DNA from: an uncultured delta proteobacterium
GTDB taxonomy: Bacteria > Desulfobacterota > Binatia > UBA9968
Reading direction: 5' to 3'
NCBI GenBank assembly: GCA_963816145.1
Contig: CAWFJP010000023.1
Span: 11,290 to 75,289, forward strand
Length of the DNA: 64,000 nt
In this document: positions 9,145 through 46,535 of the stretch, one piece after another
Position numbering within the stretch: position 1 is the first letter of the stretch
Layout: each line of letters starts with the position of its first letter
Notes under the pieces: model-generated
Told to the model about the DNA's origin: nothing
Database searches by the model: none
What the model saw: only the letters and a program-made list of their open reading frames with translations
Program-made: the position numbers and the translations under genes

Positions 9145-9164
9145 TATTGGCCTTTAGTCCAATA
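9145..9164. promoter_or_regulatory. Candidate operator, 20-bp palindrome TATTGGCC-TTTA-GTCCAATA
   Basis: One arm mismatch. Lies ~110 bp upstream of the DUF2092-like gene start (9037). Confidence 0.45.
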
Positions 9165-9488
9165 AGGGCCGAGAAGCAAACAAGCGTGCCGCCTCACCAT
9201 GCTAAGATCGTCAAGAAAACGCTTCTCACAGGAGTCAACCGACGTGAGCACAATGATGGCTACGGCCAGGAGTTCGATTCCGAGTGCCGAGAACTCGATG
9301 AGAGTACGGATAGATTCCATGACATCATTTCTCTAGAGGTGAGTGACGGGTTTAGCTAGCAATGGAATCTTGGAAAAAAGGCATGATGATTCGCGAATAT
9401 TTTAGTATTCCATTATTCCAGGACTGCGTCGCTGAAACCTCGATGGTTGCTCTGCCCTGCTGCTGGCGCAACCAACCCTCCGTCCGGA

Positions 9489-10667
9489 TCACAATAACAG
9501 AGCAACGATCCGATCAACCATTTCTTCCAAAGGGATTACGAAGAGGAGGAGCGGCAGCAGCGGAGCAGCCAATATAATCGTCAATGAAAAGACCTGCTCC
9601 TTGCCGAAAGGCGTCAGGCGCGTCTCCTTCGCGACGGTGAAGCTGTTTGCCAGATCCGCCAATGACTGGATATCACCGGTGCCCAGCAACCGGTCGCCAT
9701 CGGGGTTTCGGCCCTCGATCCATTTAGCGCGAAAGTCGCGAGTATAAACGCCGGCCACATCACCGTACTCCCGCAGCCCTCTTCGCTTCGCGTACGTCAG
9801 TTGAACACTAAAGTGAGCGGAACCAACACGAGGAGCAAAAGAAAAATTAGAATACCCGCAATCTCCAGTTTGAATTCCGGCAGGTGCGCCCCGGCGTGCC
9901 AGATGCGATTGGCAATTGCCCCCGAGAAAAAAACCGTGTGGGCCAGCAGCACAGGGGAAAAAGCAAACATGCTTCGGGCTAAAAAACCAAGCCCGCCGGC
10001 ATGATCCGGATGAAGCGTATTCAACCGCAGCGGCAGTCGCGCCACCTGCCACAAAAATCGGTACCAGATGAAAAGACGAAAGTACCGGCGCAAAACAATG
10101 AAGCGAAAGAGAGGCAGGCTGATGCAAGCGAACCAGTATCCGGCCGGCGTGAGATGCAGAGCGCCGTCGACCTCGGCGCCGTACCGCGTTGGCGCGTTGA
10201 GCGTCTGCGCTAGAGCCACCCAATGCCCCGCAAAAGCCAGGACGATCAGCAGGAGTTCCATGACAACCAAATTACGCAAGTTCAGCGCGGAGGTGACAAT
10301 TCTATTGAACCGGGGGCGGTCCTCGGCGGCGATGATCTCACGTTCGATGAACTGTCGGACGATGCCACGGCTCCATTCGTGAACGAACAGCTCCGCTGCG
10401 ATCAGAAGCGGCAATACCACCAGTAAGCGAACCTGAGCGTCGAGGGCGAAAAAAACGGCACTTGAACACGCTGACAAGATGTCCTTGCAAAGCCGTGAGC
10501 AACGTGAGCGGCAGCCAGGCGATGGCCGTAATGACGATGATCCGGCGATTCAAAAGTTCGAGTGCGGGCCCCGACAGCCGGGTGCGTAGACAAAATTGAA
10601 ACAGCGGCCCACCCAGCGCCAGGGAAAAATTCTCCGGCTCAGCGAAAATGTCGTTCTTGTTGGTCAT
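9489..10667 (-). pseudogene. Multi-TM membrane protein of unknown function, interrupted by two frameshifts
   Basis: Three consecutive minus-strand ORF pieces read through as one ~390-aa protein: 10667 to ~10450, 10477-9797, and ~9800-9489. The first junction lies in an A7 run at 10449-10455. The second lies at ~9800 (LTLVF / QLTYAKRRGLREYG). Confidence 0.6.
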
Positions 10668-10787
10668 AAAATTTTTGCTTGCTTATTCACGAGCCGCAAC
10701 AGAGCCGGGCGCGGATATCGGAGCCCCGGTGTCAGCTTGTTCGACGATGTTTACACGACGTCTCTAGACCTTAATTGAAGTCGGTCT

Positions 10788-11663
10788 CTATTTCGCAACC
10801 GGCCGGGCTACGTCCGCCGGATCGCGCAGCATTTTGCCCGTGACCAGCGCGAAAACCATATTCATTGGAATCGAGATACCGCTAAACGCCATGATCGGCG
10901 CGATTACTTCGGTGCCGGGAAAATAATAAAGCGCCACCGGAACACAAATTCCGAAATTGCGCATGGCCGTACTGATGGCGAGGACTTTTCGGTATCTGAT
11001 CTCCGGGCCTCCCAGTATCCAGCCGACGACCCAACAAAGAACGGTCAAGAGCACGATCGCAGCGATACCGTGGGCATCCAGGGCCTTGATCGCGGGCGTC
11101 TTGAACCTGCCGCTCAGCAGCGCCGCGGCGATGAAAATCACGATCGACAACAGGCCCAACCAGCGGCCCAGTTTCGGCGCGACTTCCGGAAATCGCTTTT
11201 GCAGAGCCCGCCCCACCAAGAGCGGCGCCACCACCAACAGCAAAAATAGCAGGACGATCCGGATAAACGGCCGGCCTTCTCCATCCGTCCTGGGAAAAAG
11301 CCAATCGGCCAATAGCGGCGTGATCAAGATCGCCAGGATCGTGAGAACGATCACCAGCGCAACCGCAAAAACGCGATCGCCTTTGGAGACGCGGGCAAAT
11401 TGCAAAGCGAACAGGCCGCCTGGCGAGATTGCCAGCATCATGATGCCGATTCTGATGTCGGGCGACAGGTTCAGCAGTCGGACGAGAATAAAGCCCAGGA
11501 TGGGAACGATGATCAGGTTTGCCAACAGTCCTCGACCCATCTTGCGCCGATCCTGGAGCATCGTCACGAGCTCGCCCCGCGTGGTCTCCAGCATGACCGA
11601 AACCATAAAGACCACGACAAAAATGAACATGACAACTTTGACGTAAAGAGGTGCATCTCCCAT
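10788..11663 (-). CDS. Bile acid:sodium symporter (BASS/SBF-like) family transporter
   Basis: 291 aa with ~9 TM helices. Start region VKVVMFIFVVVFMVSVMLETT...LLANLIIVPILGFILV and MLAISPGG are typical of SBF-like carriers (recalled, not searched). Confidence 0.55.
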   Translation of the reverse strand: MGDAPLYVKVVMFIFVVVFMVSVMLETTRGELVTMLQDRRKMGRGLLANLIIVPILGFILVRLLNLSPDIRIGIMMLAISPGGLFALQFARVSKGDRVFAVALVIVLTILAILITPLLADWLFPRTDGEGRPFIRIVLLFLLLVVAPLLVGRALQKRFPEVAPKLGRWLGLLSIVIFIAAALLSGRFKTPAIKALDAHGIAAIVLLTVLCWVVGWILGGPEIRYRKVLAISTAMRNFGICVPVALYYFPGTEVIAPIMAFSGISIPMNMVFALVTGKMLRDPADVARPVAK

Positions 11664-11976: not shown

Positions 11977-13514
11977 CTAGCCGCCGCTCGACGCCGCCGT
12001 CATCTTCTCGATCACCTGGTCGAGGCTGAAGCTCGCCGACTTCTGCCGGGGCGGGAACTCCTTGAAGGTGCTCAGGAACTCGCCGACGAAGGCCTGCGCG
12101 GGCACGAGCAGGTAGACGCGCCGAAACATCCAGTCGTAATAGGTATTCGACGTGATCTGCGCTTTCTCGTACGGGTCCGTCCGCAGGTTGAAGATAAACG
12201 GCACGCGCAGAGTCACGAACGGTTCCTGCCAGATTTGGAACGTACCCGGAACGCGCTGCTCCATGAACATCATCTTCCAGTTGTCGTAACGCAGCGCCGC
12301 AACGTCGCCATCGTCGGTGAAGTAGAGGAAGGCTTGGCGTGGGCTCTTGGCTTCCTTGCCCGTGAGGTGTGGCAGCAGGTTGTAGCCATCGAGGTGGACC
12401 TTGTAGGTCTTCTTGCCAATCTTGTGGCCCTTCTTCAGCTTCGCCGCGATGTCAGGCTCGCCGGCCACCGCCAGGATGGTCGGGAACCAGTCCTGGTGGC
12501 TGATGATCTCGTTCGATACCGACCCGGCGGCAATCCTGCCGGGAAAGCGCACCATGCAGGGCACGCGATACGCGCCCTCCCAGCTCGAGTTCTTCTCGTT
12601 CCGGAAGGGCGTCGTGCCTGCATCCGGCCAGGTGTTCATATGCGGCCCATTGTCGGTGCTGTACTGCACGAACGTGTTGTCTGCGATGCCAAGCTCGTCC
12701 AGGAAGTCGAGCATCTCGCCGATGTGCTTGTCGTGGTCGATCATTACGTCGTGGTACTCAGATTGCCAGCGGCCGGATTGGCCACGGCTCTCCGGCTTCA
12801 CATGCGTCCACGCGTGCATGTGCGAGGTGTTGAACCAGACGAAGAACGGCTCGCCGGCGTCGTGGGCGGCCTGAATGAACTTCTTGGCGGCTGCGAGAAA
12901 CTCCTCGTCGCACGTCTCCATGCGCTTCTTGGTCAGGGGGCCGGTGTGAGAGGTCTGACGGTAGTCGAGGTAGACGAACACGGAGGCACGGCGCAGCGGC
13001 GACACCGTGTTGTTGGTCACACGCGACGTGAATACTTCGCCGTTCGGCACGAGCACCAGCCGGCCGTCGTAGGTCCGGATGTGCGTGACGCGAACCTCAA
13101 TCTGCTCGACCGTCCCCTCAGTCTCGCCAACGACGATCTGATCGCCGATCTCGAAGGTGTGCGTTAGGAGTATCAGCAATCCGCTGACGAAGTTCGAGAT
13201 GATGTCCTTTAGCGCAAAGCCCAGGGCGACGCCGCCGAGGCCCAGACCCGTGACAACGGCCTGCGCGTTGACACCCAGCACATCAAGAGCGACGAAGACA
13301 CCGACCGCCCACACCGTGTAGTACGACACCTGCAGGAGCAGGTTGCGCTGCGTCCGATTCTCGACGCATCCGGCACCGAACAGCGCGACTCGCCGCGCGA
13401 GCCTTGCCAACCCCAGAAAATCAGGAGCACGGTGATTGCTGCGGCGAACGCACGGCCGTGCGCGTGAAAATTCTCCATATGCTCCTTGGTGATATTATTA
13501 AATTGATCGTACAT
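11977..13514 (-). pseudogene. Chimeric relic: 5' part of a small MscS-type channel gene fused in-frame to the 3' two-thirds of an arylsulfatase gene
   Basis: Residues up to ...RRASVFVYLDYRQT form an MscS pore helix and beta-domain (GLGGVALGFALKDIISNFVSGLLILL). From GPLTKKRMETCDEE... the ORF is colinear with residues ~245-575 of the intact sulfatase at 24385-26112 (PFFVWFNTSHMH, STDNGPH, TPFRNEK). The catalytic N-terminal sulfatase part is absent. An additional frameshift at ~13402-13416 separates the first 36 codons (ORF 13209-13514). Confidence 0.6.
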
Positions 13515-14060: not shown

Positions 14061-14061
14061 G

Positions 14062-16483
14062 CTACTTGTCTGTCAGCTTGCGCAGCCGGTCGGCATACTT
14101 CTTCGCCGCCGCGCTGTCACCGCGCGCTTGGTGGAAGCTAGCCAACGCCTGGACAATGTCGCGGTCGTTGGGATGGGCGAAATACGCCTTCTCCAGGCGC
14201 GCGATCGCCGCTTCGACCTTGCCCAATGAGTGCAGCGCCACAGCGTAGACATAAGCAAAGCGCGCGTTCGCCGGTTCAAGTATCGTGGCGCGCTCGAACT
14301 CACCGAGCGCTGTGTCGGTGCGTTTCATCCGCACCAGTGCCAGGCCGAGGCTATGGTGCAGCATGGCGCTGTTGGGCGCGCTCTTGAGTCCATCGCGCAG
14401 CACCCGCTCGCCTTCCGCATCGCGGCCTTGGGCACGGTAGAGGTCGGCAAGATTCGCGTATGCCGGAACAAAGCCGGGATCGTGAACGATCGCTGCTTTA
14501 ATTTCTTGTTCGGCCTTGGCCGCCTCACCGCGATTCGCATAGAAGGTTCCGAGATTGACCCGCGCTTCGCTCCGATCAGCATTATATCGTTGGCTGGCGA
14601 CATACTCGGCGCTGGCGCGCTCGAAAGCCGCGCGCTGCTCCGGGCTTAGTCGGTCGGCAGGGACAGACGCCAGCAAGCTCACCGCCTCGATGCGTAGCGC
14701 TTTCAATGGATCGGCGAGCAGCGGCGCCGCCAGCGATACGCGCGTGGCGAGCGGAACGTTGGCGAGCGACTGAAGCGCCGCGAGCCGGAGCAGCGGACTG
14801 CGATCGCGCGCGCCCGCGGCCACGGTTTCGAGCGCGCGTTGACTGTCTGCCGCATTCAATTGCGCCAACGCTGTGGCGCGGACGATGGCGGGATGGCTGG
14901 CATCGGCGGCGATCGCGAGCAGTTGCGCCGGAGCATCGAGCGCGCCCGCAGTCGCGGCCGAGAACGCCTCGCTGAAGCGTTGGAATCCTTGGGGCTCGCG
15001 GCCGTACCACGTCGTCACTTGCGCCGCCGCCCAGCGCGCATCGCGGTGAGTGTGACAGCCGTTGCACGGGTTGGGCGTGCCGAGCTTTACCGACAAATCA
15101 GGCCTTGGCACGCGCAAACTGTGATCGCGGCGCGGATCGACGACCATATAGGTGGCGCTCGGCATGTGGCACGCCACGCACGCTGCGCCGGCACTGGCTG
15201 GCTTGTGGTGGTGGTGCGCCGCCGTATCATACTTACTTGGCAAGTGGCAGGTGGCGCAAAGCGTATTGCCCTCCGTCCTCAATTTGCCGCTGTGCGGGTT
15301 ATGGCAGTCGCTGCAAGTGACGCCGTTGGCGTACATCTTACTCTGCAGAAATGAGCCCCAGTTATAAACCTCGCCGCGTTGCTGGCCGTCGGAATAGTAA
15401 AGCGGCGCGGTCAAGAACGCCGGGCGATAATAGTCGAGAAACGGCTTGCCCGCTGCGTAACCCTCTGCGATCTGGCCGCGCCGCGCGTGACATTGGGCGC
15501 AGACCTCGATTTCCTGGTCGGCTACGCGCGGCTTCGAACGCGCGGAATTGCCGGTTGTAGGATTGGGGGTCCAGACGATGCCGCGCCGTTCATCAAGGCT
15601 CGCGCTCAGACCCTTGGACAATTCCTCCCCCTTTGAAAAAGGGGGATTGAGGGGGATTTTAGCCCTGGATTCAAATTCCCCCTCGCCCCCCTTTTTCAAA
15701 GGGGGGATTTGCAATCGAGCCCATTCAAGATGGCGCGAGCCTGGTCCGTGGCAGGCCTCGCAACCGATGCTGATCTCGCTCCATTCAGTCTTGAATCGGT
15801 TGGCAACCGGATCGTAATTTTTTCGCAAGCCGGTTGAGTGGCAGTCGGCGCACATGAAGTTCCAGTTTTGCGCCGGACCGGTCCAGTGCAGTTCGTCGTC
15901 GTGAGTGATCCGCTCGTTGGGATACAGATGAAACCAGCGCTGGCCGCCGTCCTTTTTGGGACGTGCATCCCAAGCGCTTAACAGCGCCTGGATTCGCCCA
16001 TCGGGAAACTCGACCAAGTATTGTTGCAGCGGCGCGACGCCGAACGTGTACTTGATCTCATAATCGGTCAGCTTGCCGTCGCGGCCTTCGGTGTTGGCAA
16101 AAAACTTTCCATCGCGCTTGAAAAAAGTGGACGTGAGTCCGGCGTAGGTGAACTTGGCACTATTGAAATTACCCAGCACGCTTTGTTCGCTCGCCGGCGC
16201 CATGGCGTCGTGGTGTTGAGATTTTTGCCACTCACCGGCCTCCTTCTCGTGGCAGGAGACGCAAGCTTTACTGCCGACGTATTGCCCAGCGAGCGCCACA
16301 GTTCTTATCCTCGCCCTTTGGGAGAAGGTTCGGGTGACGGCTCTTGTCCGCGAAAAAGAAGTAGAGCAAAGCAGACGCGCCAAGTATGACGATCGCCAAG
16401 CCGCCCAAAAGCCAGTTGCGGCGGTTCCCTTTCTCCGGCTTAACCGGTTTGGCTTTTCGATCACGAGATTTTTTTTGCGCCAC
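14062..16483 (-). CDS. Octa-haem c-type cytochrome with C-terminal TPR repeats (N-terminal signal anchor out of frame)
   Basis: Eight CXXCH motifs (CVSCH, CADCH, CEACH, CAQCH, CSDCH, CATCH, CVACH, CNGCH), followed by ~300 aa of TPR-like repeats. ORF 16268-16483 encodes a plausible signal anchor (WLLGGLAIVILGASALLYFFF). It joins the 800-aa ORF only after removing one base near 16297-16310. A repeat element is inserted in-frame at 15624-15710. Confidence 0.8.
15624..15710. repeat. Family-C triple-hairpin element (CCCCCTTT..AAAGGGGG type) inserted inside the cytochrome CDS
   Basis: cctccccctttgaaaaaggggga-ttgagggggatttt...aaattccccctc-gcccccctttttcaaaggggggattt. 87 nt, equal to 29 codons, read in-frame as ...PPLKKGGEGEFESRAKIPLNPPFSKGE... 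Confidence 0.8.
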
Positions 16484-18949: not shown

Positions 18950-18959
18950 GAACTGATTC

Positions 18960-19225
18960 ACACGAGTTAAACATGAAAAACTGCGGTTATTTGAAATCAA
19001 TCTCTGTTCTCTCCGTTGCCTCCTGTTGAGTTTTCTTCTCCCTCGACACTCGACCCTTTCTCACAGGAGATAACGGAGGAAACAGAGGTTAATTTAAATC
19101 ATCTCCGTTCTCTCCGTTGCCTCCTGTGTAAAATCAAATCTGAAACCTGACATCCGAATCCCAACCTCCTCGATCACTGTTCACCGATCATTCATCTTCT
19201 CCCTCGACACTCGACTCTCATCACT
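18960..19225 (+). repeat. Family-A composite: degenerate hairpin plus complete hairpin with long tail
   Basis: Right arms ctctgttctctccgttgcctcctgt (19002-19026) and ctccgttctctccgttgcctcctgtg (19103-19128). Left arm cacaggagataacggaggaaacagagg (19062-19088). The tail ends ccctcgacactcgactctcatcactc. Confidence 0.85.
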
Positions 19226-19337
19226 CCGCACCAGACACGGTGCACTCGACGGCGGCAATTCGCACAGCCGTAGCGCGGTCGTCGAAAGCGCGCTGATCAA
19301 GCTCGGCGCCTTGCGCCAAGATCGCCTCTTCGGTCGA

Positions 19338-19923: not shown

Positions 19924-20177
19924 AGGGTCGAGGGTCGGGTGTCGAGGGGGTACCTCACTCGACACTGCCTTTCCCTCGTCACTCATCACTCGACACTCGT
20001 GCACCCCTCGTCCCCTTCTCACAGGAGATAACCGAGGAAACAGAGGCTAATTTAAAAATCATCTCCGTTCTCTCCGTTGCCTCCTGTGCGAATTCAAATC
20101 TGAAACCTGACACCCGAATTCCAACCTTCTCGATCAATGCTTACCGATCACCCATCTTCTACCCTCGACACTCGACG
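19924..20177 (+). repeat. Family-A complete element, near-identical to 19058-19215
   Basis: gggtcgagggtcgggtgtcgaggggg...; hairpin 20020-20088; same tcaaatctgaaacctgaca.ccgaat.ccaacct.ctcgatca...accgatca...catcttct.ccctcgacactcgac tail. Confidence 0.85.
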
Positions 20178-20217
20178 TTCGCCCGGCGCAGTTCGCGGGG
20201 CGGCAACGCGAATTGGT

Positions 20218-34790: not shown

Positions 34791-34791
34791 T

Positions 34792-35555: not shown

Positions 35556-35791
35556 ACCCCCGCGGTGATTCGTCGGGAAACCTGATAGCCGGCGATCCTA
35601 TAGAGGCGGGCGACTCATCCTGGATCGCCCGCCTTACAGGTCAGCAAAACGCCATCGGCTGCTTACTTGGCCGATTGATACTTGTGATTACCTTAATTTG
35701 AGATTGATCCCTCATGGGCTCGCCGTGAGCTGCGTCCGTGACTCTTGCGATACCAGCGAGATGACCACGCCTTTGGCGTTGGTCATGGTTA

Positions 35792-36076
35792 AATCTCCGT
35801 TAACTCCGTTCCCTCTTGTAAAAACATTCGTTCCGTTAAACTCTTTTCATTGAACAGGAGGAAACAGAGAAACCGGAGTTTTTTAAATCCGTCTCTGTAA
35901 TCTCCCTTCGCTCCTGTTCAAGTCTCTTCTCTGCGCGTTATCTGACGCTCGTCACTTCTTTACACGAGACAACAGAGGAAACCGAGGTTTGTGAAAAAAT
36001 TCTCCGTTCACTCTGTTTGCTCCTGTTAAAGTCCCCATCCTTTGTCACTCGACACTCGACACTCGTCCCTCGACCC
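35792..36076 (+). repeat. Family-A: three tandem units (one right arm plus two hairpins)
   Basis: Hairpins at 35853-35918 and 35962-36027. Tail gtcactcgacactcgacactcgtccctcgaccc abuts the porin stop codon. Confidence 0.8.
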
Positions 36077-36079
36077 TTC

Positions 36080-37459: not shown

Positions 37460-37604
37460 CTCGTTTTCTCCAAACCTATTTTCATCTTTCAGTTCCGCCG
37501 CAGCGATTTTGTCTCCATGGCCATCGGTTTTTCGCCTTTGCCGTCAACCCGATTGCCGCCTTGCTCGCGAACGATGGCATCGCGACTTATCCGTGAATCT
37601 GATT

Positions 37605-38240
37605 TCACGGCCGATTCATCTCCTGGAACTGGCGCTGGTTTTGCGTCGCGATATCCTCAAGTTGTTCATAATTGAGCGCCAGCGTTTCGCAGTTCGAGAT
37701 CAGCGTCGGCCAATCAACGTTGGCGCTCGCAACCAGCGCCAGATTAGTCGCCAGCGACTTTCGCACACTGCCGTCCTGATCCCAAAACGAGCCGAACGAG
37801 TTCGAGAAAGTATTGATGATATAATTGACGAATGACTGCATGCCTTTGAGCCCGCTTTCGATATTTACCTGGCCCGCTTTCCGGTCGCCTTGCTTTGCCT
37901 GGGTAAGTCCGAGGTATAAGCGCGCGAGATTATCCCCTTTATGCTGCGCCAGGGCTTGCTGCAGCGTCGCCTGGGCTGCGGGAAGCTGGCCGGTAAGGTA
38001 TTGAGCTCTGCCGAGATAACTCAAAACCCCTTCGCGGAGCTCAGTGCCATAGATATAGTTCGGGCTGATTTGCGCAGCGCTCTCAAAGTCGCCCAACGCG
38101 GCTTGAGTATTACCCATAAACAGCGCTTGCCTGCCGCGGGTGATATCGCTGCCACCTTGAAAACTCGCACCGCAACCCGACAGTAGGGCAACCAATAAGA
38201 CTATCGACAGATGACCCAGAACACTCATTGTTCGCTTCAT
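37605..38240 (-). CDS. TPR-containing lipoprotein
   Basis: 211 aa with lipobox ALLSGCGA. TPR-like helices (ALGDFESAAQISPNY..., YLGRAQYLTGQLPAAQATLQQAL). Confidence 0.65.
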   Translation of the reverse strand: MKRTMSVLGHLSIVLLVALLSGCGASFQGGSDITRGRQALFMGNTQAALGDFESAAQISPNYIYGTELREGVLSYLGRAQYLTGQLPAAQATLQQALAQHKGDNLARLYLGLTQAKQGDRKAGQVNIESGLKGMQSFVNYIINTFSNSFGSFWDQDGSVRKSLATNLALVASANVDWPTLISNCETLALNYEQLEDIATQNQRQFQEMNRP

Positions 38241-38499
38241 GACTTCACCTCTTCTCCAGGTTTTGTTTCCAGGTATCGGTTGTCCGAGGCCAAAGCGCCC
38301 GCACCGGGCGCATTCTGCCTCCGGCTACTGAAGCCTGGAAACCGTCAATATTTGTTATCCCTCACCTCGCCGTCATTTCGGACACAGGAACTGTATCTGA
38401 AAGCGCAAAAATCGTCAGCCGGCTCATGCTCAACTGCCTTGCCGAAACCTCGACCTTGTTTCGACTCAATTCCATATACCGAAAAATCGATTATTCCCC

Positions 38500-38519
38500 T
38501 ATTGGACTTTAGTCCAATA
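38500..38519. promoter_or_regulatory. Candidate operator, TATTGGAC-TTTA-GTCCAATA (perfect arms)
   Basis: Lies 260 bp upstream of the TPR-lipoprotein/porin gene pair. Confidence 0.5.
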
Positions 38520-39047: not shown

Positions 39048-39054
39048 GCACCGA

Positions 39055-39795
39055 TCAGTAAACCATTCGCGCTTTGCGCACCTGATCGGCGCGAATCCAT
39101 CCCTGCTTGGCGAAAAACTCCGAGAGATAGCGCGCGACCTGATCGCCGCTCGTTGCGGCCATTCGAGCGACATCCGATTTGTAGGTCTTCACGCCTGAGA
39201 CCGCGGCGTTGGCGACCACCATGCCTGCGGTTACGCCGCCGCTAACGATCGCTCCGGCGCCGAGCATGGGCGCCGCGCCGGGCATCTTGCCACTGTCGGA
39301 TTGAGTGGTGAAAGCGAGCAGCTTGCGACCGTCTGGCCCCTGATAAACTTGAACCTGACTCTCCACCGTGGAGGCTCCGTTGCCGAAGCCAACCGCCAAA
39401 CGACGCAGCGGATTGCCTTCGTCGACGGTCATAAACTGACCGTCGATCAGCAGATCGGTCCCCCCGGCCTTGGTGTCGCGGCCGACCCGCTCGACGACGA
39501 ATCCGAGCGGCTTCAAGGCGTCGACAATTTCCTCGGCCAAAGCATCTTTCACTTCCCGCGCCAGAACACGCTCCCGCTCGGAAGCGTCTTTGATGGTCGG
39601 CTGTTGGCGCATGATGCCCTGGTACTCCTTAACTTCGCCCTCGCTCACGGCGAAGTCGAGAACAAGTATACGGCTAGGCCGCGGCAGATTGGTATCAGCA
39701 ACGCGCGCGGCACGGCGAATACCCGTCTGAGCGCAGGCCGCGGTTAAACACAATAGGAGTACGCCGAAATAACCACCCGTTCGGTTCGCTAACAT
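39055..39795 (-). CDS. Lipoprotein (DUF4410-like, tentative)
   Basis: 246 aa with lipobox LTAACAQ. A Gly/Ala-rich segment (GAAPMLGAGAIVSGGVTAGMVVANAAVSG) follows. Family name is from memory. Confidence 0.55.
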   Translation of the reverse strand: MLANRTGGYFGVLLLCLTAACAQTGIRRAARVADTNLPRPSRILVLDFAVSEGEVKEYQGIMRQQPTIKDASERERVLAREVKDALAEEIVDALKPLGFVVERVGRDTKAGGTDLLIDGQFMTVDEGNPLRRLAVGFGNGASTVESQVQVYQGPDGRKLLAFTTQSDSGKMPGAAPMLGAGAIVSGGVTAGMVVANAAVSGVKTYKSDVARMAATSGDQVARYLSEFFAKQGWIRADQVRKARMVY

Positions 39796-39881
39796 ACAAC
39801 ACCTCCTCCTCTTGTTTAACGGGTCATCGCGTAATCGAGTGGGCGCTGACTTAATGGCAAATTACTCTCCCATGGCCGGTT

Positions 39882-39978
39882 CCTCCCTTTCGCAAAGGGA
39901 GGTTAGGAGGGATTTTTCATGGCTTGAAAGATCGTCTTCTGCACAAAATCCCCCCAACCCCCCTTTTCTAAAGGGGGG
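39882..39978. repeat. Family-C triple-hairpin element, intergenic copy
   Basis: cctccctttcgcaaagggagg-ttaggagggattttt...caaaatcccccc-aaccccccttttctaaagggggg. Confidence 0.8.
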
Positions 39979-40130
39979 TGAAACCTACAAGAACAGCATT
40001 TCTCAACAAATTTCACCCACTCGATTACGTGAAGAGCCTGTTTAACTTCCTCAGAGCGACGAACCTACGGCATCAAAATGCCACAAAATGGTTAGCTGAA
40101 GAAACAAACTCTGCTTGAGCGACGTCAGCG

Positions 40131-40856
40131 CTAACGCGCTTTGGCGGCCGGGCTCGGCGTCCCGGCTGTTCCGCCGACACCGATCGCGTCTCGGTAGACC
40201 ATTATTTCGACCCGGCGGTTTTTCGCCCGCCCGGCCTCGGTCTTGTTATCAGCCACCGGGACGCGCTCGCCGTAGCCCACCGCCATCACCCGGCTCGGGT
40301 CGACATCTCTTTCCGCGATCAGAAACGCGGCGATGCTTTCGGCGCGCCGCTTTGACAGCTCATAATTGTAGGTTGGCGCGCCGGAGGCATCGGTGTGGCC
40401 GGCTATTAGATAGACCAAATTGCCGCCGTCATCGGCCTGCCCCTTAACGTCGCTCAGGAAGCTGTCGATGTCTTTCTTCGCCTGGTCACTGAACTGAGCT
40501 GAGTTGGACGCGAACTGCGGCCCAGCGGTGAAATTCAACACCATTTTTCGTTCGGGCTTGAGCCGCTGCAAGCTCTCTAACGCAAGATTCGCCTTGGCGT
40601 CGGTTTGGCCGACGCGGGCTTCGAGATCGGCGATCTGTTTGGCCATGGTGTTCACCCGGGCGTCGACTTGGGTGACCCTGCCGTCCGTCTTAGTCACATT
40701 CGCCTCTGTGTCCGAAAGTCGCTTATTGATCGGGAACAGTTGCTCGTTGGTCCAGCTTTGCACCCAGTCTTGGGTCGCTAGACAGCCCGAGGCGCCCAAC
40801 ATTGCGAAAACACTAAACAGCGGCAGTCCTCGCCGCAAGAAATTGGAATTATGCAC
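40131..40856 (-). CDS. OmpA-family lipoprotein with N-terminal coiled-coil repeats
   Basis: The GTG at 40856 has GAGGAG 7 nt upstream and gives a signal peptide with lipobox MLGASGC. Coiled-coil repeats (DARVNTMAKQIADLEARVGQTDAKAN) precede the OmpA_C core: GHTDASGAPTYNYELSKRRAESIAAFL...NRRVEIMVY. The track ORF starts at a TTG at 40874. Confidence 0.85.
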   Translation of the reverse strand: MHNSNFLRRGLPLFSVFAMLGASGCLATQDWVQSWTNEQLFPINKRLSDTEANVTKTDGRVTQVDARVNTMAKQIADLEARVGQTDAKANLALESLQRLKPERKMVLNFTAGPQFASNSAQFSDQAKKDIDSFLSDVKGQADDGGNLVYLIAGHTDASGAPTYNYELSKRRAESIAAFLIAERDVDPSRVMAVGYGERVPVADNKTEAGRAKNRRVEIMVYRDAIGVGGTAGTPSPAAKAR

Positions 40857-40964
40857 AAAGAATCTCCTCTTCAATTAAATTTTTTCGATCCACTCTTGAA
40901 ATTGTCGTTATATCTTTCCACAAGCGCCGCGCCGTAACCGATTGCACCAGCGGCACTACAGCAC

Positions 40965-41097
40965 TCTTCCCTCGCCACTTCCATCTTTACAGGAGGCAAC
41001 AGAGAAAGCAGAGAGAGTCTTAAAAATTTCTCCGTGATCTCCGTTTGCTCCTGTTAAATCCCTCGACAACCGACACTCGACCCTCTTCACTCGTCAC
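40965..41097 (+). repeat. Family-A complete element
   Basis: tacaggaggcaacagagaaagcagagagag (40988-41017) / ctccgtgatctccgtttgctcctgtt (41030-41055) / ccctcgacaaccgacactcgaccctcttcactcgtcac. Confidence 0.8.
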
Positions 41098-41588
41098 TTC
41101 ACCAGCGGCACACCCTGGGCGATGTCGTACCGGATGACGGCGCGAATCTTGTTCTCGATCTGCAGGTAACGCGCGACTTTGACCATCGGCAGCGCTTTAG
41201 CGAGCTTGGGCGCGAAGGTGCTCTTGAGATTGACCTCCGCCTGTTCGATGGCGTTGGCCTCCTCGATCAGCTTCTTTGCCTTGTCGTCGGTCAGCGACTT
41301 ACTACGGAAGTCAGCGGCGTAGATCTCTAGCACATTAACGATGCGCTGATTGATCTTGCGCAATTCCTTTTGATATTCGTCATAGATCGGCCAGAAGTTC
41401 TTCGCCTCCGACTCGGTCAATTCCATGTTGCTCGCCACCAGCAGCTTTTTGTCCGCTTTGATCTTGTCACGCAGGATCTGCATGTTGTCCGCTGGCTTGT
41501 CCTGCGCCGCCAAATTCATCGATGGGAGCCCCAACAGCACGATCGCCACTGCAACGCGGATTGTTTTTTTCAATAAATCGATTCTCAT
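41094..41588 (-). CDS. Periplasmic all-helical protein, paralog 1 (Spy/CpxP LTXXQ-like, tentative)
   Basis: 164 aa with a signal peptide. ~55% identical by eye to ORF 42437-42928. Shared motif: ELTESEAKNFWP(I/V)Y(D/E)(E/D)YQ ... YLQIEN. Confidence 0.65.
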   Translation of the reverse strand: MRIDLLKKTIRVAVAIVLLGLPSMNLAAQDKPADNMQILRDKIKADKKLLVASNMELTESEAKNFWPIYDEYQKELRKINQRIVNVLEIYAADFRSKSLTDDKAKKLIEEANAIEQAEVNLKSTFAPKLAKALPMVKVARYLQIENKIRAVIRYDIAQGVPLVK

Positions 41589-41621
41589 TGCTTCTCTCCT
41601 TCAGGTTTCATTTGTCAGCAA

Positions 41622-41710
41622 CCGAGGGGCGAGTGTCGGGTGTCGAGGCGAATCCCACTCGACCCTCGTCACTCGTCACCCTCTTTTTTCTCACTCGACC
41701 CTCGACACTT
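41622..41710 (+). repeat. Family-A outer arms without inner hairpin
   Basis: ggggcgagtgtcgggtgtcgaggcg...cactcgaccctcgtcactcgtcaccc...ctcactcgaccctcgacactt. Confidence 0.65.
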
Positions 41711-41721
41711 GTGTCGGCCGC

Positions 41722-42303
41722 CTACGGATTTGGATTGATCTTGGTAATCTTGGTTCCCTGGATGCCCATGCCGCCCATCAGTCCCTTTTGGTCAAAGATG
41801 AATGCATACACACCTTTTTGCAGGGTCGTGGTCGATAAGTTCTTGCCGAATCCTTCGTCCAACACCACCAGGCTAGGCCCGACCCCCAATTCGAAGCCGG
41901 CAGTGTTGTCGAGATACTGCAACGACGCATTATCCATAAAAAACAGCACGTAGCCGTAGGCTTGAATGCCGGCTTGAAATCCATACGACACCGCGAGCGA
42001 ACGGTAATAGGCAACGGTCTTGCCGCGTTTGCGTAAAGCGCCGTCGCCGAATTGGCCGGCGAAGATGAATCCGCCTTTGACGATGCTCGGGAAGACCAAC
42101 ACTCCGACCGCCTTGTCCGCCAATGCCTTGGCGGCCGGATAGTTTTTAGTGAGTTTCGCCACCGTCGCCCTCACGTCACGGTCGATCTCGCTCGCACTCG
42201 CCGCCTGCGCCGCAGCCGGACTCAAGACATGGAAGGTCAACAGCATCAATGCCAGCCCGACGATTAAGTTGGGCATCTTGGTATTTCGGTTATTTGCTCT
42301 CAT
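41722..42303 (-). CDS. SYLF (Ysc84/DUF500) lipid-binding domain protein, secreted
   Basis: 193 aa with a signal peptide. VLVFPSIVKGGFIFAGQFGDGAL...SYGFQAGIQAYGYVLFF...GFELGVGPSLVV matches the SYLF domain pattern. Confidence 0.8.
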   Translation of the reverse strand: MRANNRNTKMPNLIVGLALMLLTFHVLSPAAAQAASASEIDRDVRATVAKLTKNYPAAKALADKAVGVLVFPSIVKGGFIFAGQFGDGALRKRGKTVAYYRSLAVSYGFQAGIQAYGYVLFFMDNASLQYLDNTAGFELGVGPSLVVLDEGFGKNLSTTTLQKGVYAFIFDQKGLMGGMGIQGTKITKINPNP

Positions 42304-42351
42304 TCTGTGCTCCTGTCATCAAATTAGAAGGTAATCCCGCTCGCCATTTTT

Positions 42352-42433
42352 TACTGGAGGAAACCGAGGTTTTCGAAAATGCTCCGTTAACTCCGTTTGC
42401 TTCCGATTAGACTCCCTCGACCCTCGACCCTGA
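42352..42433 (+). repeat. Family-A element, short left arm
   Basis: tactggaggaaaccgagg / loop / ctccgttaactccgtttgcttccgatt / ctccctcgaccctcgaccc. Confidence 0.7.
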
Positions 42434-42436
42434 TCC

Positions 42437-42928
42437 CTACTTCGCCAACGGCACCGTGGTCGCGAGATCATATTTCAGCAGCACGCGGTACTCGTTTTCG
42501 ATCTGCAGATAACGCGCGGCCTTCTTGGCCGGCAGCGCTTTCATCACCTTGGGGATGAAGGCGGTGCGTTGCTTGACGTCGTCCTGTTCAAGGGCGATCC
42601 ACTCGTCGAGCAGCTTCTTGGCTTTGTCGTCGGTGAGCGACTTGCTGCGGTAGTCCGCGGCGTAGCTCTTCAACAGCGCGCCGAGACGCTCATTGATTTT
42701 CTGCAAATCGTTTTGGTAGTCCTCGTACACCGGCCAGAAGTTTTTGGCTTCCGATTCGGTCAACTCCATATATTTGGAGACAATCAATTTTTTGTCCGCC
42801 TTGAGTTTCTCGTGGACGATTTCCAGATTGTTGGCAGGCTTATCCTGCGACCGCGCAGCTATCGGCGCACTTCCGAGCGCAGCCACGAATAAAACCGCCA
42901 AAAACTTTGTCCCTGTCTTGTTCTTCAT
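42437..42928 (-). CDS. Periplasmic all-helical protein, paralog 2 (Spy/CpxP LTXXQ-like, tentative)
   Basis: The ATG at 42928 has GGGAGGG 7 nt upstream. Signal peptide MKNKTGTKFLAVLFVAALGSAPIAA. Paralog of 41094-41588. Confidence 0.65.
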   Translation of the reverse strand: MKNKTGTKFLAVLFVAALGSAPIAARSQDKPANNLEIVHEKLKADKKLIVSKYMELTESEAKNFWPVYEDYQNDLQKINERLGALLKSYAADYRSKSLTDDKAKKLLDEWIALEQDDVKQRTAFIPKVMKALPAKKAARYLQIENEYRVLLKYDLATTVPLAK

Positions 42929-42956
42929 CTCGACCCTCCCTTTTTCGATGTTTATA

Positions 42957-43379
42957 TCACGAATCAATATTTCCCTTGACAGCTTGGCGTCCCGGCGCCG
43001 AGATCAAGTAGCCGAGCATCACCGCCGGGACGATCGCCCAAAGCAGTGCCCGCACCGGGGTGTCGCCTTGAATTATGACACTCAGCACCAGCAAAAAATT
43101 GACGATCGCCAAGCAGATTCCCAACCACCGCGCCCAATGCCGCTGCAGCAATACGCCGCATGCAAAAGCGACAAATAAGAGCGCTAGAACCGCCACCAGC
43201 ATGCCCCTGCCGATGGCGATCAGTCCAAGCAACGGCAGTAACAGCAGGCCCTGCCCCATCATATCACTGCCGACGTCGAACCACTGTAGCGCACGCAGAA
43301 CAGCAGCGATGCTTTGAAGCACCGCCAGCACGGCAACGACCTTCAAGCCCAATGGATTATTTGGCAGTACCGATACCAT
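42957..43379 (-). CDS. Four-TM membrane protein, unknown function
   Basis: The start is taken at the ATG at 43379 (MVSVLPNNPLGLKVVAVLAVL...). The upstream 25 codons of the track ORF translate a repeat element. Confidence 0.5.
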   Translation of the reverse strand: MVSVLPNNPLGLKVVAVLAVLQSIAAVLRALQWFDVGSDMMGQGLLLLPLLGLIAIGRGMLVAVLALLFVAFACGVLLQRHWARWLGICLAIVNFLLVLSVIIQGDTPVRALLWAIVPAVMLGYLISAPGRQAVKGNIDS

Positions 43380-43394
43380 GGTGTCCCTAAAGAA

Positions 43395-43470
43395 GTGTCG
43401 GGTGTCGAGTGAAAAAAGCGCCCGACCCCACGTCTCTCGCCGACCCCTCGACACTCGACACTCGTCCCTC
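43395..43470 (+). repeat. Family-A outer arms without inner hairpin
   Basis: gtgtcgggtgtcgagtg...cccctcgacactcgacactcgtccctc. Confidence 0.6.
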
Positions 43471-43502
43471 TTATCTCCCCCGACCCCCGTGCCTCGTTGC
43501 CG

Positions 43503-44474
43503 CTACGGCTTCACTTCCGTCCAGCTTTTATCAGGGTCGAACTCTTTCATCGCCTGGGCGGCTGAGCGGGTATTAGCACCCAAATCCTTTTGAAAAACTT
43601 TGCCTTCGTGGTTGACCGTGAACGTCATCACGCCGGAATTGCCGTACTCGGCGGGAAAGGCGACGAGCGCAAAGCCGCCCATCATGTTGCCATTAACGAC
43701 GTAGCTGTAAGCCCCGCCAGTAGCGTTCTTTCCCTGACCCTCGAGGATCTTGTAATAGTAGCCGTAATAAGGCGCCGCGGTTTGCCCGGCGCCCGGACCT
43801 TGAGCGGAATAGCCGGCGCCTTGAGCCTGCGCCCAGAGCGGCCCCAGCGGACTCTGCTCTTCGCCGCTCTTTGCTTCCCAGTACAGCCCATTTTTCTTAC
43901 CGGCCTCGCTGCGGATGCGGCGCGCGTATTCGAGAATCTTGTCGTCGTCGCGATCCTTCATCGCATACTCGCGCTGGGCATCGACGAACGTCAATGCCAC
44001 TTGAATCGCGTTCAATTCGTTGGTGCCGATACGGCGGTTGAGAATTTCCTCGCGGCCCTTGTCGGTGTCGAATACCCAACTATCCGCTTTCTTGACGAGC
44101 GGAATCGGGAATGGCCAGGCATTGTTGCCGATCGTGATGATCCGGCTATCGCCTTCGCTAACGATAGTGTTCTTCTCGTTATAGGCCGCCAAGAACCGCT
44201 CACGCCAATGCTTGTCCGCAACCGGATCGCCGGAAAACATCAGATCTTTGGCTTGCGCGCCGAAGATCGCCAAGAGCTCTTTGTCATCATTACTTTTGGC
44301 GGCGGCCACCGCGGCCTTGACTGCCTCTTCGGGGCTAGCGAATGTCTTTTGTTTTGCCGGCGTAGCGGCCACGGCAAACTGGCCTATCGTGAGCGTCAAA
44401 ATGATCACCGCCGCGAACCCGGCCCAATACCAATTCGTCGGTTCTTTTGGATCTGCGCTTAGATTGTGCAGCAT
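43503..44474 (-). CDS. DUF2950-family secreted protein
   Basis: 323 aa. FASPEEAVKAAVAAAKSNDDKELLAIFG...NAWPFPIPLVK...YYGYYYKIL...GGFALVAFPAEYGNSGVMTFTVNHEG matches my memory of DUF2950. Confidence 0.8.
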   Translation of the reverse strand: MLHNLSADPKEPTNWYWAGFAAVIILTLTIGQFAVAATPAKQKTFASPEEAVKAAVAAAKSNDDKELLAIFGAQAKDLMFSGDPVADKHWRERFLAAYNEKNTIVSEGDSRIITIGNNAWPFPIPLVKKADSWVFDTDKGREEILNRRIGTNELNAIQVALTFVDAQREYAMKDRDDDKILEYARRIRSEAGKKNGLYWEAKSGEEQSPLGPLWAQAQGAGYSAQGPGAGQTAAPYYGYYYKILEGQGKNATGGAYSYVVNGNMMGGFALVAFPAEYGNSGVMTFTVNHEGKVFQKDLGANTRSAAQAMKEFDPDKSWTEVKP

Positions 44475-44499
44475 CGCTTCTTTCTCCCTAACCTACGGC

Positions 44500-45903
44500 T
44501 CACCGTGAAGTTCTGAGCAAAGCCAAACCATCAGCGGCGTCCGCCACCGCCACCGCCGCCTCTGGCACCACCGCCACTCCGTGCAGCGCCACCACTGCTC
44601 GTGCGGCTCGCGCTGCCGCGTTGGCTGGAGCTTTTGGCGGAACTGCCACCGCGGTCGATGCCTTCAAACGCGCCGCCGCGGCTGCTCGAAGCACCAAGGT
44701 TGGCGTTCGACTGGCTCGCGCCGCCGCGGCTGCCGGCAGTCGCCGAAGTTCTAGCCTGTTCGCCGCCACGCGCCTGCTGGGTTCTGGTTGCGGCGCTCGT
44801 TGCTGCCGGCTGGTCGATTGTTGCTGCGGCTTGCTGCGCTTGCTGTCCGGTGTTTTGTTGCTGGGCCTGCTGACCGGCTGATTGCTGACGAGCTTGTTGA
44901 GCTTGCTGTCCGGTTTGTTGTTGCTGCGCTTGCTGCGCTCGTTGTTGCGCCTTTGCTGTTCCGCTGGGGTCAAAGCACTGCCGGTGTAACCGCGATACGC
45001 CTGGCGCGCCTGAACCTGTTGGCTCGGCGACGCCTGGTTATATTTCTGCGCCACCGCTTGATTGCCGTAGGGAACTCCCTTGCGATTGGCCGCATTGTGC
45101 TGCCAATTACCCTGCGCGTTTGCCGGTAGCTGATTTGCGTATACGTTGCGGTTGATGTTGGTGTTGATATTGACGTTCTGGTTGTAATTGTAGTGAACGT
45201 GTCCGTTGTTCCAGTTAGGGCTGCCCCATGCGTAGCCCCAGGCCGCGCCTAGCGCGACCGCGCTGCCAAACCAAAATGCCGACCTTGCCGCGACATATCC
45301 TGGCGGATAGTAGTAATACGGTGGATAGGCCGGATAGGGCCAGGTGCCATAGACTACGGTTGGATTGTAGGCGGGAACATAGACGACCTGCGGACTGGCA
45401 GGCTCGATGACAATGATCTTATCCTGAACGATCACCTTTTGCTCTTGCGTCGTTTTAAGATTACCCGCCGCTTGCGCCTTGGCACGCAGACTCTGGATGG
45501 TATCCATGACGGGCTTTTCCCCTGCAAGAAACGCGTCGCCCAGTTTTTGCGTCCAATCGAGCTTCTCGTTCATCATGGTCAACACCTGGGGGAAATTGAC
45601 CAGCGACTTCACGCTCGGGTCCCAGCTCTGCGCTTCCAGCGCTTTGGTCAAGGCGTCGCCTTTGAGATTTGCGTTCTGTTTGGCGAATCGGGCGGCGTTA
45701 ACCACATCGAGCGGATACGTCGACGCCATCAGGATCTGCGCGATCAATGAATCAGGATAGAGCGCGATCGGCGCGAGCAACTGATCGAGCTCTTCCTGCT
45801 TAACCACCGGGGCATTAGCCGCATCCTGCGCCCATGTCCCCGGAGGTACAGCCAACAGCGTAACCAAATAACATGAAAGCGCAATTTTTATGACTTGCCT
45901 CAT
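44500..45903 (-). CDS. DUF3300-family secreted protein (C-terminal low-complexity tail probably frameshifted)
   Basis: Signal peptide plus the hallmark LLAPIALYPDSLIAQILMASTYPLDVVNAARF. After ~codon 318 (near 44950-44958), the -1 frame gives a typical Gln-rich then Gly/Arg-rich tail ending GGGARGGGGGGRR with a stop at 44531-44533. Confidence 0.85.
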   Translation of the reverse strand: MRQVIKIALSCYLVTLLAVPPGTWAQDAANAPVVKQEELDQLLAPIALYPDSLIAQILMASTYPLDVVNAARFAKQNANLKGDALTKALEAQSWDPSVKSLVNFPQVLTMMNEKLDWTQKLGDAFLAGEKPVMDTIQSLRAKAQAAGNLKTTQEQKVIVQDKIIVIEPASPQVVYVPAYNPTVVYGTWPYPAYPPYYYYPPGYVAARSAFWFGSAVALGAAWGYAWGSPNWNNGHVHYNYNQNVNINTNINRNVYANQLPANAQGNWQHNAANRKGVPYGNQAVAQKYNQASPSQQVQARQAYRGYTGSALTPAEQQRRNNERSKRSNNKPDSKLNKLVSNQPVSRPSNKTPDSKRSKPQQQSTSRQQRAPQPEPSRRVAANRLELRRLPAAAAARASRTPTLVLRAAAAARLKASTAVAVPPKAPANAAARAARAVVALHGVAVVPEAAVAVADAADGLALLRTSR

Positions 45904-46019
45904 TATGCTCTCTTCGCTTTTACTCGTTCACTTAGTGAATATGACGCCGCTATACCAGTTTTCTGGTGACTCCCCAGGCGCACGACACTCAATTTCGCGC
46001 CAGACACTTTGCCTTGGGC

Positions 46020-46424
46020 CTATGGTTTATCGCCACCCGCCACTTCGCTCGCCAGCGCCGCGCGCAATGTTTTAATCAATAACTCATCGTCGAAGGGCTT
46101 GCGCAAAAAGGCCATCGCTCCGGATGCCAACGCCCGCTCGCGCACGCCGACTTCGTCATGCGCCGTGATAAAGATAACCGGAATGGGGTTGCCGCCGCGC
46201 GCGAGCCGTTCCTGGGTTTCCAGACCGTTCATGCCCGGCATTTGCACATCCAAAATGGCGCAGTCAGCTTGAAACGACGGCATCGCGTCGATACAGTCCA
46301 AAAACTCTTGCCCCGACGCGAAGGTCTCAGCGTTCATGCCGAGGGAGCGAACGAGTCTTTTCAAAGCTCGACGGACCGAAACGTCATCATCGACGATCGC
46401 GATCAATGGCAGGCCTTTGGTCAT
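46020..46424 (-). CDS. Single-domain response regulator (REC only)
   Basis: 134 aa. IAIVDDDVSVRRAL...AILDVQMPGMNGLE...VIFITAHDE...FLRKP. Confidence 0.85.
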   Translation of the reverse strand: MTKGLPLIAIVDDDVSVRRALKRLVRSLGMNAETFASGQEFLDCIDAMPSFQADCAILDVQMPGMNGLETQERLARGGNPIPVIFITAHDEVGVRERALASGAMAFLRKPFDDELLIKTLRAALASEVAGGDKP

Positions 46425-46515
46425 TAAATTTTGTTGCGCAAGACATTCGAGGACAAACCAGATCCCGAACAGCTTTCGCTAACGATCATCTATATAGGAG
46501 AGCAGAAGGGCTGTA

Positions 46516-46535
46516 TATTGGACCTTGGTCCAACA
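46516..46535. promoter_or_regulatory. Candidate operator, TATTGGAC-CTTG-GTCCAACA
   Basis: One arm mismatch. Lies 92 bp upstream of the REC gene that heads the DUF3300/DUF2950 gene string, between it and the FixJ-like gene. Confidence 0.45.

Follow-up and report, generated by a model that had tools for sequence, protein, structure and literature searches.

FixT of Caulobacter is a single-domain receiver that acts as a feedback inhibitor of the FixL-FixJ system. StyR, TodT and TmoT recognize a box of the form ATAAAC-N4-GTTTAT, in which AC...GT is invariant (PMC5874301), and StyR was shown to activate from a site near -40 together with a cooperative upstream site (PMC2442086). The DosR/DevR box of Mycobacterium tuberculosis is TTSGGGACTWWAGTCCCSAA (PMC2275270), and K179 of DosR is one of its three base-contacting residues (PMC4082495). 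EL222 binds RGNCYWWRGNCY, with TAGGTAGCCTTTAGTCCATG as its high-affinity operator (PMC10521638), and it activates transcription when its own site is put over the -35 in place of the lux box (PMC5001607). In this paper we looked at a 64-kb stretch of DNA from an uncultured delta proteobacterium (referred to below as the window), in which a 20-bp palindrome recurs upstream of operons for envelope proteins. Our analysis suggests that this dyad, TATTGGAC-YAAR-GTCCAATA, is the operator of a FixJ/StyR-type response regulator encoded at 46627-47268, a reading to which we give a probability of about 0.78. The link between the regulator and the dyad is based on four independent lines, namely loci picked by their DNA, loci picked by their protein, closer orthologues, and covariation between protein and DNA. 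A sequence-only reading of the window had already proposed one circuit, in which several envelope operons are linked by a protein-binding operator bound by the adjacent FixJ/LuxR-type regulator, and the statistics of the sites, their conservation in orthologues, the association with the regulator and the covariation all support that such a circuit may exist.

The dyad sites and their promoter layout

The whole 64-kb window was searched with the pattern TATTGGACNNNNGTCCAATA, allowing up to three mismatches. The search returned five matches to TATTGGAC-N4-GTCCAATA, exactly the five close matches that the sequence-only reading had listed, compared to 0.15 expected (mean of 100 shuffles, none of which reaches five). 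The arms are perfect at 30605 and 38500, with one mismatch at 9145 and at 46516 and two at 30797, which agrees with the one or two mismatches described before. An independent weight matrix, built solely from metagenome sites that adjoin regulator homologues, gives these five sites 27.5-34.9 bits against a mean top score of 10.2 bits in 100 randomised windows, and besides them it scores nothing in the window above 8.5 bits. The sites are thus not random. All five are intergenic with minus-strand genes downstream, the likely start codons being 91-259 bp away (90-260 bp in the earlier description). Their format is an 8-N4-8 inverted repeat, found at these five places and in the 126 copies listed from other genomes, and an inverted repeat of about 16-20 bp with its half-sites on the same helix face is the form of a LuxR/FixJ (NarL)-family operator. 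One feature was absent from the sequence-only reading: the 4-bp spacer is YTTR on the plus strand at all five sites, i.e., always YAAR toward the genes, and therefore the sites are oriented.

Site 46516-46535 (minus strand, as are all the sites; TGTTGGACCAAGGTCCAATA on the gene strand; 32.5 bits) lies between the regulator stop codon and a receiver gene. Site 38500-38519 (33.3 bits) is upstream of a gene pair for a TPR lipoprotein and an OprB porin, and site 30605-30624 (34.9 bits) is upstream of the gene for a PAS/sigma-54 activator. A distal second site at 30797-30816 (27.9 bits) is located 192 bp upstream of site 30605 and starts 2 bp past the stop codon of a degenerate receiver gene; its role is probably an auxiliary or cooperative one. 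The fifth site, 9145-9164 (27.5 bits), is upstream of the DUF2092/PqiA-PqiA-PqiB-PqiC string. A split variant at 34496-34526, 260 bp upstream of the gene for a 562-amino-acid protein, consists of two half-sites with one mismatch each and a 15-bp spacer, and an inverted half-site pair of this kind, with any spacer of 0-30, is expected 0.08 times per window. The sequence-only reading was right that this variant exists, but its half-sites are 11 bp further apart than in the other sites (a spacer of 15 instead of 4) and not 10, and it is probably a disrupted or atypical operator. The degenerate receiver-like protein next to the distal site (30818-31258, minus strand) has VVESYP in place of the VDDD acidic pair and retains the Asp and Lys positions; with its stop codon 2 bp from site 30797 it mimics the layout of a regulator stop codon that is followed by a site.

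An exact scan for ATTGGACYTTRGTCCAAT, with one genome per species, gave at least 119 stretches with 126 copies of the 18-bp core. About 70 chance matches are estimated for the whole genome collection and therefore the number of matches alone proves nothing. Many of the matches listed are from metagenome-assembled genomes (MAGs) labelled delta proteobacterium, Syntrophobacteraceae, Binatia, Acidobacteria, Rokubacteria and Aminicenantes, and others are from Paraburkholderia, Caballeronia and a few Bacillota, taxonomic proportions that are not to be taken at face value. The intergenic location noted for the window was also found in these genomes, with 97 of the 126 copies listed outside open reading frames (ORFs) of at least 150 amino acids, as judged by crude ORF calling. 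In some loci there are tandem overlapping dyads with a 15-bp offset (e.g., TATTGGACCAAAGTCTAATGGACTAAAGTCCAATA), namely L125 (+57/+72 past the regulator stop codon), L127 (+121/+136) and L104 (near 1415), and this arrangement suggests two dimers that would be bound on one helix face.

The genomic copies were oriented by their spacer (YAAR) and the bases were counted at each position, with 124 oriented copies among the matches listed. A T-A-n-n-n-T signal appears at +40 to +45 from the A of ATTGGAC (T in 71, A in 86 and T in 69 of these copies), and the mirrored side of the dyad shows no signal in the same set. TAnnnT is found within one base of that distance in 63 of the 126 copies listed, compared to 11 of 126 on the mirrored side. 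The dyad centre is located 31.5 bp upstream of the TAnnnT -10 hexamer, i.e., near -43.5 from the predicted transcription starts, and the bases that follow the dyad (A, G/T, C/A, C) give a weak -35-like hexamer (e.g., TAGACA, TATACA) at 17 bp from the -10. A dyad near -43.5 that abuts a weak -35 therefore occupies the position of a class II activator, for which the centre is near -41 to -44. Four of the five window sites share the -10 geometry: 30605, 38500 and 46516 exactly and 9145 off by one base, and site 30797 is without it. For site 46516 the predicted -10 is TATAGA (46489-46494, minus strand), whose TA is invariant in orthologue alignment A3, the -35-like TATACA (46512-46517, minus strand) overlaps the last two bases of the site, and transcription is predicted to start near 46482. 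The predicted -10 hexamers of the other sites, all on the minus strand, are TATATG for 38500 (38473-38478), TAGATT for 30605 (30578-30583) and, with a 1-bp shift, TAGGTT for 9145 (9117-9122). A sigma-70 consensus scan around 46516, 30605 and 30797 found no stand-alone promoter with a good -35, which fits weak -35 elements and gives no positive evidence by itself. The YAAR centre is asymmetric and its direction predicts the side of the -10, as seen in the 63 and 11 copies above. Such an oriented spacer is not accounted for by a symmetric dimer; it may have to do with DNA bending or with a contact to RNA polymerase.

The regulator next to the dyad and its recognition helix

The candidate binder is a response regulator of the FixJ/StyR subfamily (46627-47268, minus strand) that has a receiver domain followed by a GerE/LuxR-type helix-turn-helix (HTH) with the helix EKTIKVHR, and its gene stops 91 bp upstream of site 46516. 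No other protein in the window has such a recognition helix. Among solved structures its matches are StyR (1yio; E 3.5e-58), FixJ (9e-46) and DevR (1e-14). The cognate sensor kinase (47265-51077, minus strand), whose gene overlaps the regulator start codon, contains a periplasmic solute-binding-like domain, several PAS domains, HisKA and HATPase_c, with a FixL-like core; the same kinase-regulator gene pair is found in loci L204, L206 and L208. Among NCBIfam models FixJ is the closest to the regulator and FixL to the kinase core, with scores below the equivalog cut-offs (216.8 bits against 255 for the FixJ model NF006900 and 367 against 850 for the FixL model), and the names given to these proteins by NCBIfam and by the source are only 'FixJ family' labels. 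Regulator sequences identical to that of the window occur in soil metagenomes 3300060274 and 3300061215 of the Joint Genome Institute (JGI). The first gene under the 46516 promoter encodes a single-domain receiver (46020-46424, minus strand), which is 40% identical to the receiver domain of the regulator and has its acidic pocket, Asp, Thr and Lys intact; it is likely to be a feedback element, a phosphate sink or a kinase inhibitor. On the other side, an AraC-type regulator gene (51650-52663, plus strand) is divergent from a small ORF and the kinase gene, an arrangement that is retained in L208 and L209, and the intergenic region between them contains no dyad.

Based on these features the following mechanism can be suggested. 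The PAS-rich sensor kinase would phosphorylate the regulator, which would then dimerise so that each LuxR-type HTH could read one TTGGAC half-site. A dimer bound at about -43.5 would most likely recruit RNA polymerase in a class II mode, as in LuxR, StyR and engineered EL222 promoters, at promoters that have a recognizable -10 and a poor -35. As the first gene switched on beside the regulator would be the stand-alone receiver, the activation may be followed by negative feedback.

The association of the dyad with this regulator family was seen from both directions. In the loci that were picked by DNA alone, 27 of the 119 listed carry a full-length homologue of the regulator (43-62% identity), and at least 15 of these 27 loci have the layout of the window, in which homologue and site share a strand and the site follows 7-140 bp after the end of the homologue. 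The homologue-bearing loci include Bacillota, Rokubacteria, Acidobacteria, Burkholderiales and Desulfobacterota. The protein-picked set consists of 80 metagenome contigs with regulator homologues of 52-69% identity, of which 75 loci were scored. TTGGAC-N4-GTCCAA (up to two mismatches, -30 to +400 of the stop codon) is present in 21 of these 75 loci, compared to about 1.2 by chance according to our estimate, and the weight matrix detects a site on the same strand, no more than 400 bp from the stop codon, in 26 of the 75. The site therefore travels with the family of the adjacent FixJ/LuxR-type regulator across phyla, which is in favour of the link that the sequence-only reading had drawn to this regulator.

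Conservation in orthologous promoters is a further line. In loci whose regulators are 71-85% identical to that of the window, the site is present between the regulator gene and the next gene, and the counterpart of site 46516 has this position in L001 and L204-L210. The order of kinase, regulator, site and receiver gene is found in three of the four distinct orthologous arrangements; the receiver is followed by DUF3300, DUF2950, Ysc84, OmpA and DUF4410 in L204 and L208 and by a homologue of the 562-amino-acid protein in L206. L210 is without an adjacent kinase or receiver gene, yet the site is still located after the regulator gene. When nine regulator-proximal intergenic regions were aligned, the only columns without variation were 16 within the dyad and the TA in the -10 hexamer, and the TACA right after the dyad is retained in the orthologous loci of 71-85% identity. 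Away from the dyad, the protein of 20218-21165 (minus strand) has a 93% amino-acid match in L074, a Candidatus Binatia MAG (DASSGE01), and matches of 63-82% in other Binatia and 'delta proteobacterium' MAGs.

The operator also changes together with the protein. In many of the protein-picked loci from which the canonical site is missing, variant palindromes are found at the same place after the regulator gene, either CCTATAC-CAAR-GTATAGG or CTTTAC-YAAA-GTCTA, in which the core AC-YAAR-GT is retained and the outer bases differ. Sorting the regulators by the class of their operator gives two discriminating columns in the whole protein, and one of them is helix residue 170. This residue is Lys in 15 of 15 regulators of the TTGGAC class (that of the window and 14 from protein-picked loci) and in all 24 site-linked regulators, the window's included, and it is Ile or Val in 17 of 17 regulators of the CTATAC-CAAR-GTATAG class. 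Two regulators of the CTTTAC form (L141 and L158) have the helix EAAVKVHR. In a gap-free alignment K170 is opposite to K179 of DosR. The Ile/Val-170 homologues with CCTATAC-CAAR-GTATAGG (or ...GTATAATTGCG) are those of L131, L132, L138, L143, L146, L156, L159, L168, L172, L180, L182, L188, L192 and L193, and L141 and L158 have tandem CCTTTAC-YAAA-GTCTA sites.

A broader reading, which we put forward tentatively and at slightly less than even odds, is that of a widespread unnamed two-component module that comprises a solute-binding/PAS kinase, a FixJ/StyR-like regulator, its operator and a feedback receiver. Its DNA specificity would be set largely by one helix residue (Lys for TTGGAC, Ile/Val for CTATAC, Val in StyR for ATAAAC and Ala-Ala for CTTTAC), which would keep paralogous systems apart, and its conserved regulon of uncharacterised envelope proteins (DUF3300, DUF2950, DUF2092/Pqi and OprB) would extend across Binatia, Desulfobacterota, Acidobacteriota, Burkholderiales and some Bacillota.

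Alternative explanations for the dyad

One question is whether the local regulator is the protein that binds all these sites. The main binder could be another LuxR-type HTH protein that has the same helix and whose gene is outside the window, either a paralogous regulator or a one-component protein, for example a LOV-HTH; the local regulator would then control no more than the promoter beside it. About 8000 proteins belong to this very large family at E <= 1e-30, 92 of the 119 motif loci listed are without a homologue within 8 kb, and EL222 is an example of a non-receiver protein with almost the same helix; moreover, the orphan regulator of L210 has no adjacent kinase and yet three sites. We consider an outside binder unlikely, as the local regulator is the sole such HTH protein in 64 kb that hold five sites, the arrangement of a regulator followed by a site recurs across phyla, and the operator shifts along with residue 170 of the adjacent regulator. 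Several points nevertheless weigh against the local regulator as the binder of these sites. Only 64 kb of the genome are visible, and some of the sites could be shared with, or belong to, paralogous regulators that have the same helix; about one third of the protein-picked homologue loci are without a recognizable downstream palindrome; the covariation of Lys with Ile/Val could reflect few evolutionary events, and the two classes may be clades; site 30797 is without the canonical -10 distance, and the variant at 34496 is unlike a simple dimer site.

The dyad itself can also be explained in other ways. It could be the site of a repressor or a roadblock, or it could work at the RNA level, as a hairpin or terminator between the regulator gene and the genes that follow, since the palindrome folds as a hairpin of 8-10 bp (-10 to -12.6 kcal/mol), it is often located directly past a stop codon, and a terminator scan flags 30605 with its T-rich tail. 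LuxR-type proteins, including EL222, can also repress from sites over or downstream of the core promoter (PMC5001607). Yet the T-rich tail is missing at the other sites, whose tails all differ, the scan finds no terminator at 46516, and it is the identity of the bases and not just their pairing that is conserved across phyla. The fixed, one-sided distance to the -10 means that the site is upstream of the core promoter, a position from which steric repression would not be expected, and the weak -35-like hexamers are what is expected of activator-dependent promoters, so that we find this option very unlikely. An Rfam search of the window for known RNAs gave no match. Still less probable are upstream activating sequences for the sigma-54 activator of 27354-30476 or for another enhancer-binding protein. 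This activator, with its Fis-type HTH, is encoded directly downstream of two sites, and enhancer-binding proteins also use dyads upstream of promoters. However, -24/-12 elements are not enriched in the window (28 compared to 32 expected) and none falls between a site and the gene it precedes, what is conserved downstream of the sites is a TAnnnT -10 at 31.5 bp, and the motif travels with the GerE-type regulator, while full-length homologues of the sigma-54 activator were not found beside the motif in the loci examined. The least probable option, with a chance that is close to negligible, is a small repeat, dispersed or mobile, that has the palindrome at its core and is of the repetitive extragenic palindromic (REP) or miniature inverted-repeat transposable element (MITE) type. 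An unrelated dispersed hairpin repeat is indeed present in many intergenic regions of the window, but the dyads fall in none of the window's repeat families, their flanks diverge completely apart from the -10, and the same 18-mer is found in unrelated phyla at equivalent promoter positions. This agrees with the sequence-only reading, which took the lack of flanking conservation as a sign of a protein site rather than a mobile repeat.

Predicted target genes and comparison with known systems

Coming back to the dyad as the operator of the regulator of 46627-47268, the genes downstream of the sites are those that the sequence-only reading had named. The regulator would switch on the receiver gene and the rest of its operon (39055-45903, minus strand), which encodes DUF3300, DUF2950, three small proteins of no known family, Ysc84/SYLF, OmpA and DUF4410 and has the same gene order in L204 and L208. 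Site 38500 would serve the TPR lipoprotein and the OprB-family porin (36080-38240, minus strand), and in L210 a site precedes a gene string with OprB at its end. The 1040-amino-acid PAS/sigma-54 activator (27354-30476, minus strand) would be controlled by sites 30605 and 30797, the latter as the second upstream site, and as a target it may represent the second tier of a regulatory cascade. Site 9145 would control a predicted lipid-transport string (989-9091, minus strand) of DUF2092 (LolA-like), a small protein, two PqiA, PqiB with MlaD repeats, a PqiC-like lipoprotein and a symporter/solute-binding fusion; the motif also precedes a DUF2092 homologue in L050 (37 bp) and a PqiA homologue in L110 (157 bp). 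The 562-amino-acid protein, which has no Pfam family (32547-34235, minus strand), is probably a target as well, although it follows the split variant, and its orthologues in L038 and L121 have a canonical site 114-144 bp upstream.

In other genomes the genes directly downstream of the motif include homologues of the receiver, the 562-amino-acid protein, PqiA, DUF2092, OmpA and small family-less proteins. A Pfam scan of the first gene after the motif in 104 loci, with crude ORF picking, gave the receiver as the commonest (11), followed by OmpA (4), sulfatase (3) and HlyD (3), with many genes without a family. This tally loosely backs targets of the 'envelope or secreted' type, and in the window as well the targets are largely secreted or envelope proteins. 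There are two sulfatases in the window. The ORF of 11977-13410 (minus strand) has mechanosensitive-channel and sulfatase domains and is either a fusion or a mis-joined reading frame, and the second sulfatase is at 24385-26112 (minus strand). Neither is preceded by a site; L101 and L025 have homologous sulfatases directly after the motif, at distances of 27 bp and 238 bp.

Other features of the window are unusual in themselves. One fusion protein (14062-16464, minus strand) is an 800-amino-acid multihaem cytochrome with C-terminal TPR repeats, and another at the end of the Pqi string (989-3151, minus strand) joins a dicarboxylate symporter to a family-3 solute-binding domain. The dispersed intergenic element mentioned above has at least ten copies (3795-3965, 18955-19240, 19975-20180, 22900-23100, 24160-24275, 34590-34805, 35780-36095, 40985-41110, 42357-42451 and 43445-43492), with heptamer-like runs of CTCGACA/CTCGACC and an imperfect inverted repeat of ~70 nt (ACAGGAG..AAC.GAG..AAC... 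/ ...GTT..CTC.GTT..CTCCTGT). On the transcribed strand it is predicted to form long hairpins (-25 to -37 kcal/mol, z -3 to -6) that have no match in Rfam. Its copies are located between minus-strand genes, several of them inside operons downstream of dyads.

A search for the motif in several spellings found no paper that describes it in the library covered, the matches being DosR papers with the central 12-mer and unrelated primers. The kind of system is entirely familiar, i.e., a LuxR/FixJ-type regulator and a 20-bp dyad at a class II position, while there seems to be no earlier description of this pair of regulator and operator, of how it is spread over phyla, of its envelope regulon or of the specificity switch by a single residue. 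An operator, a promoter layout and a candidate regulator can now be offered for envelope proteins without an assigned function (DUF3300, DUF2950, DUF2092 with PqiABC, the OprB porin and the 562-amino-acid protein) in organisms that are mostly known from metagenomes only. With the motif and the regulator helix, the regulon can be predicted in many genomes from soil and sediment. The Lys versus Ile/Val switch is a simple testable specificity rule for LuxR-type HTH domains, and it may aid the design of EL222 variants with different operators.

The comparison with the described systems shows both what is shared and what is different. With FixL-FixJ the locus shares a stand-alone receiver beside the system, which recalls FixT of Caulobacter. 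The FixJ helix, however, is PRT[VI]EV[HY]R, the scores are under the FixJ/FixL cut-offs as mentioned, there is no fixK or fixNOQP nearby, and the kinase has a periplasmic solute-binding-like domain. DosR also uses a 20-bp dyad and has the central 12-mer GGACTWWAGTCC in common with ours (PMC2275270), and its base-contacting K179 and K182 (PMC4082495) align with K170 and K173. Yet our regulator is distantly related to DosR (E 1e-14 compared to 3.5e-58 for StyR), its helix continues with VHR and not NYV, the outer bases are TATT/AATA instead of TTSG/CSAA so that the full consensus TTSGGGACTWWAGTCCCSAA is not present, and both the sensor type and the regulon are unlike those of DosR. The lux box resembles our site as a 20-bp dyad over the -35, read by a dimer with a GerE-type HTH in class II activation (PMC5001607), but its sequence is unlike the dyad and LuxR is activated by an autoinducer ligand and not by phosphorylation.

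StyR is the best solved-structure match over the whole protein (1yio) and its box has the same 6-N4-6 format. Its two-site cooperative layout resembles the 30605/30797 pair, whose centres are 192 bp apart, and by analogy StyR cooperation is a plausible model for this pair. The half-site here is TTGGAC and not ATAAAC, and the second helix residue is Lys170 where StyR has Val; the predicted targets are envelope genes rather than aromatic catabolism genes, and the kinase is not of the TodS/StyS double-kinase type. The nearest match to the helix among characterised proteins is that of EL222 (EKTVKMHR compared to EKTIKVHR here). The window core GGACYAARGTCC fits the 12-bp EL222 consensus RGNCYWWRGNCY at 9145, 30605, 38500 and 46516, while 30797 fails at one position (GGATC), and a run of 12 bases at site 9145, GCCTTTAGTCCA, is also found in the C120 operator (PMC10521638). 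Yet EL222 is a one-component LOV-HTH light sensor of Erythrobacter litoralis, whereas the regulator here has a phospho-receiver paired with a kinase and no LOV domain, and its site is longer (16-20 bp), strictly palindromic, oriented by its YAAR centre and found in a natural regulon of envelope genes. The element thus seems to work like the EL222, StyR and DosR systems and yet belongs to none of them, because it has no LOV domain, scores below the FixJ cut-off, differs from StyR in half-site and helix residue, and is remote from DosR.

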